This document shows positions 9,849 to 10,009 of a DNA stretch of 64,000 bases, one piece after another. The stretch is from an uncultured Pseudomonadota bacterium. Its GTDB lineage: Bacteria > Pseudomonadota > Alphaproteobacteria > JACZXZ01. A model generated the notes under the pieces. The model ran no database searches. It was not told the DNA's origin and saw only the letters and a program-made list of their open reading frames with translations. Both the position numbers and the translations under genes were made by a program. The stretch spans positions 608,001-672,000 of the forward strand of contig CAVVLJ010000021.1 of assembly GCA_963749075.1 (NCBI GenBank). Reading direction: 5' to 3'. Numbering within the stretch: the first letter of the stretch is position 1; every line of letters starts with the position of its first letter.

Positions 9849-9877
9849 TTGAATTTTTCGCGGTGGGTTCCTAAATT
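9849..9877 (+). promoter_or_regulatory. Candidate sigma70 promoter in the cas3-cas5 gap
   Basis: TTGAAT (9849-9854), 17 nt, TAAATT (9872-9877) in an AT-rich patch. Confidence 0.6.
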
Positions 9878-9896
9878 TTGGAGGTCGCGGCCAAAG

Positions 9897-9921
9897 GATC
9901 GATAGACATCATTACAGCAAA
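9897..9921 (-). promoter_or_regulatory. Predicted Cascade binding site (protospacer plus TTT PAM) for the crRNA-like guide
   Basis: Minus strand TTT|GCTGTAATGATGTCTATCGATC matches the pseudo-spacer GCTGTGATGATACCTATGGATC at 18 of 22 positions. Confidence 0.7.
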
Positions 9922-9946
9922 ACTTGCAACTTGACCCGACCGGCCC

Positions 9947-10009
9947 CGTGGATTGAAACGCTGTGATGATACCTATGGATCACGCCTGCGGGCGAGAAAG
10001 CCCGCAGGC
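9947..10009 (+). ncRNA. crRNA-like regulatory RNA (CreA/CreR-like): repeat handle, pseudo-spacer, hairpin
   Basis: CGTGGATTGAAAC (9947-9959) is identical to the last 13 nt of the array repeat; 24-nt pseudo-spacer 9960-9983; stem GCCTGCGGGC-GAGAAA-GCCCGCAGGC 9984-10009. Confidence 0.7.

Follow-up and report, generated by a model that had tools for sequence, protein, structure and literature searches.

The window, a 64,000-nucleotide (nt) stretch from an uncultured Pseudomonadota bacterium (contig CAVVLJ010000021.1, positions 608,001 to 672,000, forward strand), carries a complete CRISPR-Cas locus of type I-C, in which cas3, cas5c, cas8c, cas7c, cas4, cas1c, cas2 and a CRISPR array follow one another on the + strand. 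The gap between the end of cas3 at 9828 and the start of cas5c at 10291 is 462 nt long and holds, on the cas strand, a short unit at 9947-10009. This unit is probably a type I-C solitary repeat unit (SRU) that functions as an autorepressor of the cas genes through an RNA resembling a CRISPR RNA (crRNA), of the kind published as crRNA-like RNA (crlRNA) or Cas-regulating RNA (CreR). The features of the gap are the following, with positions counted along the window.

9849-9877, + strand: promoter candidate P1, with TTGAAT at 9849-9854, a 17-nt spacer and TAAATT at 9872-9877; putative function
9897-9918, − strand: protospacer-like target, in which 18 of 22 positions match the guide, the exceptions being guide positions 6, 12, 13 and 18
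9919-9921, − strand: position of the protospacer-adjacent motif (PAM), AAA on the + strand and hence 5'-TTT on the protospacer strand
9931-9936, + strand: promoter candidate P2, a -35-like TTGACC located 9 nt beyond the PAM, found by eye; putative function
9947-9959, + strand: pseudo-repeat remnant, CGTGGATTGAAAC, identical at 13 of 13 positions to the last 13 nt of the array repeat
9949-9959, + strand: 5' handle of 11 nt, TGGATTGAAAC
9960-9983, + strand: spacer-like guide, of which 22 nt are complementary to the target and the last 2 nt precede the hairpin
9984-10009, + strand: 3' hairpin, a perfect 10-bp stem with arms at 9984-9993 and 10000-10009 and a 6-nt loop at 9994-9999
10030-10197, + strand: small open reading frame (ORF) of 55 codons directly after the hairpin, with GGAG 10 nt before its ATG

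The array repeat is 32 nt long (GTCGTCCCTCGCGCGGGGGCGTGGATTGAAAC), and the original prediction, made from the letters of the window alone, had described 9947-9959 as the exact last 13 nt of this repeat, which is read directly in the sequence. The 5.49-Mb genome contains 64 copies of the 11-nt handle, of which 62 are in the array, one is in the gap and one is on contig C16. Among the copies outside the array, genome-wide, the gap copy is the only one that carries the features of a guide and a target. The C16 copy (L001; 945680-945690, − strand) looks like a chance occurrence because it lies within a 1464-nt open frame and the sequence downstream of it has no PAM-flanked match anywhere in the genome; it was therefore dropped as a second unit and serves as a natural negative control.

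The guide directly follows the handle, and its first 22 nt (9960-9981) match the minus strand of 9897-9918 next to a 5'-TTT flank with the four mismatches that had been predicted, as can be read directly from the letters. This site is the best non-self match of the guide in the whole genome. The next-best sites are seven at 16/22, none of which is flanked by TTC or TTT. Shuffled guides compared with the gap did not exceed 16/22 in any of 5000 trials, and among all 22-mers of the gap a score of 18 is reached by the guide-target pair only. The pairing spans four 5-nt segments, and the seed pattern is identical to that of the related locus L116. By our own arithmetic, the chance that four mismatches in 22 positions include positions 6, 12 and 18 is 19/7315, or 0.0026. 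That the unit is a coincidental resemblance with no function is exceedingly improbable: the handle does recur once by chance, on C16, but that copy lacks any PAM-flanked match, and the handle, the best genome-wide match, the PAM, the sixth-position pattern and the hairpin jointly lie far beyond the controls.

The third part of the unit is the hairpin at 9984-10009, for which the original prediction of a perfect 10-bp stem was confirmed by the full complementarity of the two arms. The hairpin is unrelated to the repeat and has no T-run. An RNA that starts at 9949 and ends in the hairpin loop is predicted from the geometry to be 46-51 nt long. Read by eye, a strong hairpin is present 21-45 nt past the handle in the window and in all 17 relatives examined.

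BLASTN of the gap exhibited no match to plasmids or to phages, and a scan of viral contigs for the handle together with the guide seed, as would be carried by a possible phage mimic, gave 0 hits. The Rfam scan of 9700-10400 at E-values up to 10 provided no match. Among sequencing runs, no RNA run was listed as containing the region, and in four DNA runs from a single study no contig spans approximately 9685-10020. An apparent inverted partial copy of the unit at 10193-10231 was dropped from further consideration, as 192 of 1000 shuffles score equally.

The gap was then compared with other type I-C loci, in a set composed of the window, 80 genome loci (of 122 relatives) and 80 metagenome loci (of 167). 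Ten duplicates and the loci with too little upstream sequence were removed, which left 138 non-redundant loci whose sequence upstream of cas5c spans 300 nt or more. When the gap was used as a DNA query against the 10 other genomes of its family, none of them matched, and only the window's own genome did. Since no close relative has a matching gap, the design of the unit was tested in place of its sequence. A handle-like motif is present upstream of cas5c in 19 of the 138 loci, with 21 motifs in total. All 21 are on the + strand of these upstream regions (81.8 kb), where the − strand has 6 more, in comparison with 1 (+) and 6 (−) in 360 kb of cas5/cas8 coding sequence and 7 (+) and 5 (−) in 269 kb further upstream. 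One of the six − strand motifs upstream of cas5c is found in L068 at approximately 9698-9708.

A motif was scored as having its own target when the 12 nt after the handle matched a TTC-flanked site at 9 or more of the 10 non-sixth seed positions. Of the 21 motifs, 16 have such a target; among 3958 control 12-mers drawn from the same regions, 8 do. The five motifs outside this group are that of the window (TTT), that of L047 (TTC, 8/10), the second motifs of L066 and L134, and that of L091, which consists of a full repeat, 7 nt and a partial repeat. The same sequence is found in L129 (2831-2885). In these closest Cas5c relatives (67-73% identity) the cas3-cas5c gap is 100 nt long and holds an intact repeat, 7 nt and a partial second repeat; no target was detectable in the gap of L129/L091.

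In the 16 loci with TTC-flanked targets, guide positions 13-17, which were not used in detection, match their targets at 63 of 80 positions, and this falls to 24 of 80 for positions 19-23. Positions 6, 12 and 18 match in 4/16, 4/16 and 3/16 loci respectively, which is chance level. Judged from sequence, this per-position pattern is the signature of Cascade pairing in 5-nt segments. The guide differs in every locus and each has its own matching target, which amounts to covariation across loci. The alignment of related cas3-cas5c gaps that the original prediction had suggested as a check for covariation had no orthologous gap to draw on, and it is these 16 guide-target pairs, with their sixth positions unconstrained, that take its place. 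The targets of the relatives lie 159-255 nt upstream of the handle, just past the cas3 stop codon, and adjoin TTGAC-type -35 hexamers when read by eye. For two protospacers on the minus strand, a -35-like hexamer lies beyond the PAM by 9 nt (L047) and 7 nt (L064). In 12 of the 16 loci the target is in direct orientation to the guide.

This orientation bears on the explanation that 9897-9918 and 9960-9981 form nothing other than an RNA stem in the cas5c leader, with a role in stability, processing or attenuation, and that the 13-mer in the loop of this stem is incidental. The guide and the target copy, if transcribed together, fold into a 22-bp stem with a minimum free energy of -53 kcal/mol (z = -3.9), a value that none of 200 shuffles reaches; the mismatch at guide position 6 is also a G-U pair in RNA. 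Mismatches at positions 6, 12 and 18 and a T-rich PAM would nonetheless be meaningless for an RNA stem, and it is very unlikely that chance placed an exact repeat end of 13 nt in a gap of 462 nt, given that the 5.49 Mb of the genome contain just one more copy of the 11-mer beyond the array. For the units of the 16 loci, a pure RNA stem is not a sufficient explanation because direct repeats, as guide and target are in 12 of them, are unable to pair as RNA. Homologues that keep only the stem had been named in the original prediction as evidence that would speak against a Cascade guide; the relatives instead keep the handle and the PAM. A structural role of the leader RNA on its own is thus highly improbable.

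The kind of unit is already known, as a preprint on type I-C systems describes SRUs upstream of cas5c that guide Cascade to promoters (bioRxiv 10.1101/2024.12.27.630466). In its account, SRUs located just upstream of cas5c give crlRNAs of 48-50 nt with an 11-nt handle; Cas5c makes their 5' end by cutting 3' of the hairpin in the pseudo-repeat, and they end within the loop of the 3' hairpin. The pairing covers approximately 16 bp with a mismatch at position 6 and a PAM of TTC or TTA, the target adjoins the -35 element, and start sites are found 37-46 bp downstream of the target. The crlRNAs are reported to repress promoters 4.8- to 60-fold and to control Nezha, Gabija and 'CRISIS' genes, and the screen that identified the units required seven conserved 3'-terminal repeat nt and a palindrome. 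The unit of the window shares with these SRUs the subtype, the strand and the place before cas5c, the kept 3' end of the repeat that gives an 11-nt handle, the 3' hairpin that is not derived from the repeat, and a short guide that can pair with a site close by, next to a candidate PAM, and leaves positions 6 and 12 unconstrained; its predicted length of 46-51 nt fits the published range. It differs from the SRUs described there in a pseudo-repeat without a palindrome, in a PAM of TTT, in the absence of a cargo gene between target and unit, in the position of the target 41 nt upstream and of the unit 333 nt from cas5c, and in a pairing of four 5-nt segments over 22 nt.

Three further groups of elements exhibit similarity to the unit. 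CreR RNAs arise from degenerate mini-CRISPRs (Liu et al., bioRxiv 10.1101/2023.03.10.532045), and in the text of that preprint drawn on here autorepression is shown for types I-B, I-E and V-A, while creA-like elements of type I-C are merely mentioned. Like CreR, the unit is a stand-alone guide inside a cas locus with a target upstream of cas5c that may adjoin the effector promoter region and no convincing toxin partner, and autorepression by Cascade would be the expected logic. CreR elements have two degenerate repeats; in the window the second is an unrelated hairpin and the first keeps the handle only, with no repeat-like handle found downstream of the guide. The CRISPR-repressed toxin-antitoxin RNA pairs (CreTA) are alike in that a degenerate repeat and a partially matching guide repress a neighbouring promoter via Cascade without cleavage (PMC8501985). 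They differ in having a toxin gene, for which the sole candidate here is the ORF at 10030-10197, with no homologue and a composition like that of non-coding sequence. Lastly, Table 1 of Shmakov et al. 2023 (PMC10120712) records a repeat-like sequence in 34% and a mini-array in 7% of 1206 I-C loci. As in the unit of the window, a sequence resembling the repeat lies in a long intergenic region of the cas locus, the spacer is shortened, and positions 6 and 12 are mismatched; the elements described there are mostly two-repeat mini-arrays, with types I-B, I-D, I-E and I-F1 highlighted and the I-C cases counted only.

From these comparisons a mechanism can be proposed. The unit would be transcribed as part of the cas3-cas5c leader, by transcription that starts at the TTGAAT/TAAATT candidate or reads through from cas3. 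Cas5c would hold the 11-nt handle, Cas7c subunits would cover the guide of 22-24 nt, and the RNA would end in or past the 3' hairpin, with an expected product of approximately 48 nt. The resulting small Cascade would bind the TTT-flanked site at 9897-9921 and form an R-loop of 22 bp; flipped out of it would be positions 6, 12 and 18, which leaves position 13 as the sole true mismatch. Such an R-loop may be too short to license Cas3, in which case the complex would remain in place as a roadblock, 9 nt from the -35-like TTGACC and approximately 12-37 nt downstream of P1. Less transcription would then reach cas5c-cas8c-cas7c, and probably also cas4-cas1-cas2, giving negative feedback on Cascade. 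By analogy with CreR, from which the release mechanism is carried over, repression would be eased when Cascade is titrated by the crRNAs of the 62-spacer array or blocked by an anti-CRISPR. The effector genes cas5c-cas8c-cas7c are likely to be controlled by the unit, and the genes and the array of the locus are arranged as follows.

7099-9828, + strand: cas3 (HD nuclease and helicase), with NCBIfam TIGR01596 and TIGR01587; the stop codon ends at 9828, the coordinates are those of the ORF list, and the true start is probably downstream of 7099
10291-10956, + strand: cas5c, NCBIfam TIGR01876 above cut-off
10953-12833, + strand: cas8c, NCBIfam TIGR01863 above cut-off
12837-13718, + strand: cas7c, NCBIfam TIGR02589 above cut-off
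about 13.7 kb to 14362, + strand: cas4, an adaptation gene with an uncertain start
14373-15407, + strand: cas1c, an adaptation gene
15409-15702, + strand: cas2, an adaptation gene
15902-20128, + strand: CRISPR array, with 62 repeats that carry the exact handle and degenerate terminal repeats at the far end

The two array spacers closest to cas2 are short, at 22 nt (15934-15955) and 23 nt (15988-16010), and the next spacers shown are approximately 34-39 nt long. For these two leader-proximal spacers, no TTC- or TTT-flanked partial match was found among the top-ranked sites of the genome. Long G homopolymer runs are found on both sides of the array, at 15709-15722 just after cas2 and at 20175-20194 inside the last degenerate repeat, and could be either real or assembly artefacts.

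The promoter that would be blocked is represented by two candidates. The TTGAAT-N17-TAAATT pair and the TAGACA (9903-9908) named in the original prediction as promoter hexamers are both present; the pair scores 8/12, below the threshold of 9/12 used in the promoter scan, which did not call it. From P1 a start is predicted near 9884-9886, placing the target at approximately +12 to +37. The P2 hexamer, from which a start would lie near 9965, is followed by no convincing -10, and the handle occupies the would-be -10 position. Its spacing of 9 nt from the PAM equals that of the relative L047 and is near the 7 nt of L064.

Several points weigh against a functional autorepressor. No orthologous copy of the unit is available for direct covariation, as the best Cas5c relatives share 68-73% identity and have gaps unrelated to that of the window (L129/L091, L133, L090 and L010 being the closest). 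The 33 nt upstream of the handle fold at only -2.2 kcal/mol with the nearest stem 20 nt away, whereas in 12 of the 17 relatives a stem of -8 kcal/mol or better ends at the handle; the pseudo-repeat accordingly has no palindrome of the sort that the published SRU definition includes. The original prediction had itself cautioned that the canonical upstream stem was missing, and with this fold value and no stem abutting the handle the caution was justified. The unit lies 333 nt from cas5c, compared with 59-189 nt in the relatives, and its target only 41 nt upstream of the handle, compared with 159-255 nt. The PAM is TTT, while it is TTC in all 16 relatives and TTC or TTA in the SRU preprint (bioRxiv 10.1101/2024.12.27.630466). 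The combined promoter and terminator scan of 9700-10400 gave no site, with neither candidate reaching 9/12. The 22-nt match spans nearly the whole 24-nt guide, and because it does so, the view that the R-loop is too short for Cas3 is an assumption. Finally, the 22-bp leader stem would sequester the guide if the target copy were transcribed together with it.

Part of this evidence would also fit a fossil, that is, a formerly working crlRNA and target that are now inert, in which the loss of the stem prevents maturation by Cas5c and the PAM has drifted from TTC to TTT. The missing stem, the PAM that departs from that of all 16 relatives and the atypical spacing are what would be expected of such a remnant. 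The gaps of the nearest relatives hold rearranged repeat material (the full repeat, 7 nt and partial repeat of L091/L129) or nothing (L133), and these differently rearranged gaps suggest fast turnover. Decay does not, however, readily account for a handle that is intact at 13 of 13 positions while the rest of the repeat is not, and the location of three of the four mismatches exactly on unpaired positions (p = 0.0026) points to continued selection on pairing. A weak stem or no stem at the handle is also found in four relatives with TTC targets (L064, L108, L118 and L154). TTT is functional as an I-C PAM elsewhere, being the second-best interference PAM of the L. pneumophila system in the work of Rao et al. 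(PMC5602111), which also cites its use in B. halodurans. A fossil is for these reasons considered unlikely, and the reading of 9947-10009 as a working type I-C SRU that represses its own cas genes is given a probability of roughly 0.6. The anatomy that the original prediction had proposed, an I-C crRNA-like guide with a PAM-flanked self-target, is retained in it and recurs as the same design in 16 independent I-C loci; the small ORF that had been placed in the repressed transcript is not supported as a gene.

A more elaborate form of this reading, in which the features that set the unit apart are themselves part of its function, is distinctly doubtful. The unit would then be a minimal, stem-less I-C regulator, its crlRNA maturing without a Cas5c stem-loop signal from a leader in which the RNA copy of the target pairs with the guide in the 22-bp stem. 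The 110-nt module would act at two levels, with Cascade on the DNA blocking the leader and the leader RNA hiding the guide until it is processed, so that the feedback on cas5c-cas8c-cas7c would be set by free Cascade and by RNA processing.

If the unit works, an uncultured soil bacterium tunes its level of Cascade with a self-guide of 48 nt, adding a type I-C case to cas autoregulation, where the texts drawn on here demonstrate it for I-B, I-E and V-A and show I-C units in control of cargo defence genes. It would be a new example and not a new principle, as such regulators are already known. What is most useful about it is that the pseudo-repeat has no stem and that the self-targeting layout is compact. 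Because the stem of the pseudo-repeat is missing and TTT is used, the unit is a useful edge case that tests the minimal needs of I-C Cascade for guide loading, and such units would escape screens in which a palindrome is demanded. A ready test bed is provided by the 16 loci in which a handle, a guide and a TTC-flanked target occur together.

The ORF at 10030-10197, which the original prediction had placed in the repressed transcript, is not supported as a gene by sequence analysis. A word-index search identified no homologue, and when 1.84 billion representatives were searched in full with HMMER, the one match was marginal (E-value 7.5e-4), covered 24 residues in a 503-aa protein and was not counted as a homologue. 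The GC content at third codon positions (GC3) is 0.56, in comparison with the value of 0.74 or above that long open frames of this genome have, and the codon usage is atypical, with three ATA codons and many other rare codons. A hidden Markov model (HMM) built from a small-peptide family of the relatives exhibited nothing significant in a six-frame search of the genome (best E-value 3.4), and this ORF was not among the top matches listed.

The same ORF is central to the explanation that the unit is a CreTA-like safeguard, in which the guide mainly silences a harmful downstream product, either the ORF or its RNA, and loss or inhibition of Cascade harms the cell. The ORF does follow the hairpin directly, with a GGAG 10 nt before its ATG, and its three ATA and other rare codons recall the rare-codon CreT RNA toxins that have been published (PMC8501985). 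A small peptide gene is also found inside the regulated unit in 9 of the 16 relatives with TTC targets, and a hydrophobic ORF of 45 codons is found in the same place in L064. Rare codons and a GC3 of 0.56 are, however, also expected of non-coding sequence, the ORF has a single marginal partial match among 1.84 billion proteins, and the peptide-family HMM misses it. The cargo of the relatives, moreover, lies between target and unit and not after the unit. A safeguard of this type is therefore quite improbable in the window, and the autorepressor remains the preferred reading of the unit.

The small ORF of the relatives is conserved, approximately 26-32 codons long, and located approximately 200-360 nt upstream of cas5c in L040, L047, L054, L116/L117, L123, L130, L132, L134 and L154. 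It sits between the crlRNA target or promoter on one side and the solitary repeat unit on the other in nine of the 16 loci with TTC targets. The predicted peptide features a basic N-terminus, two short beta-like stretches and an end of the E-x-E-P-P or E-I-E-P-I-I type. The peptide of L116/L117 was found independently by the HMM (E-value 0.05 in 1.7 Mb of six-frame sequence), and the other eight were used to build the model. Cascade may control this small gene, as a cargo or as a toxin gene. Neither 'peptide' nor 'small protein' occurs as a term in the main text of the CRISIS preprint (bioRxiv 10.1101/2024.12.27.630466).

Two other relatives exhibit different arrangements at this position. In L064, the 45-codon ORF (9791-9928) is hydrophobic and membrane-like. 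On one side of it is a TTC-flanked target and on the other, immediately ahead of cas5c, a mini-array of two repeats with a spacer of 21 nt; this layout resembles CreTA with a small membrane peptide. In L017, at approximately 9800-9830, a start codon preceded by a strong Shine-Dalgarno sequence opens a frame of two sense codons, of which the first is the rare arginine codon AGG, before a stop codon; this frame, too, lies between the target or promoter and the repeat unit. We take this mini-ORF to be reminiscent of the published rare-codon CreT RNA toxins.

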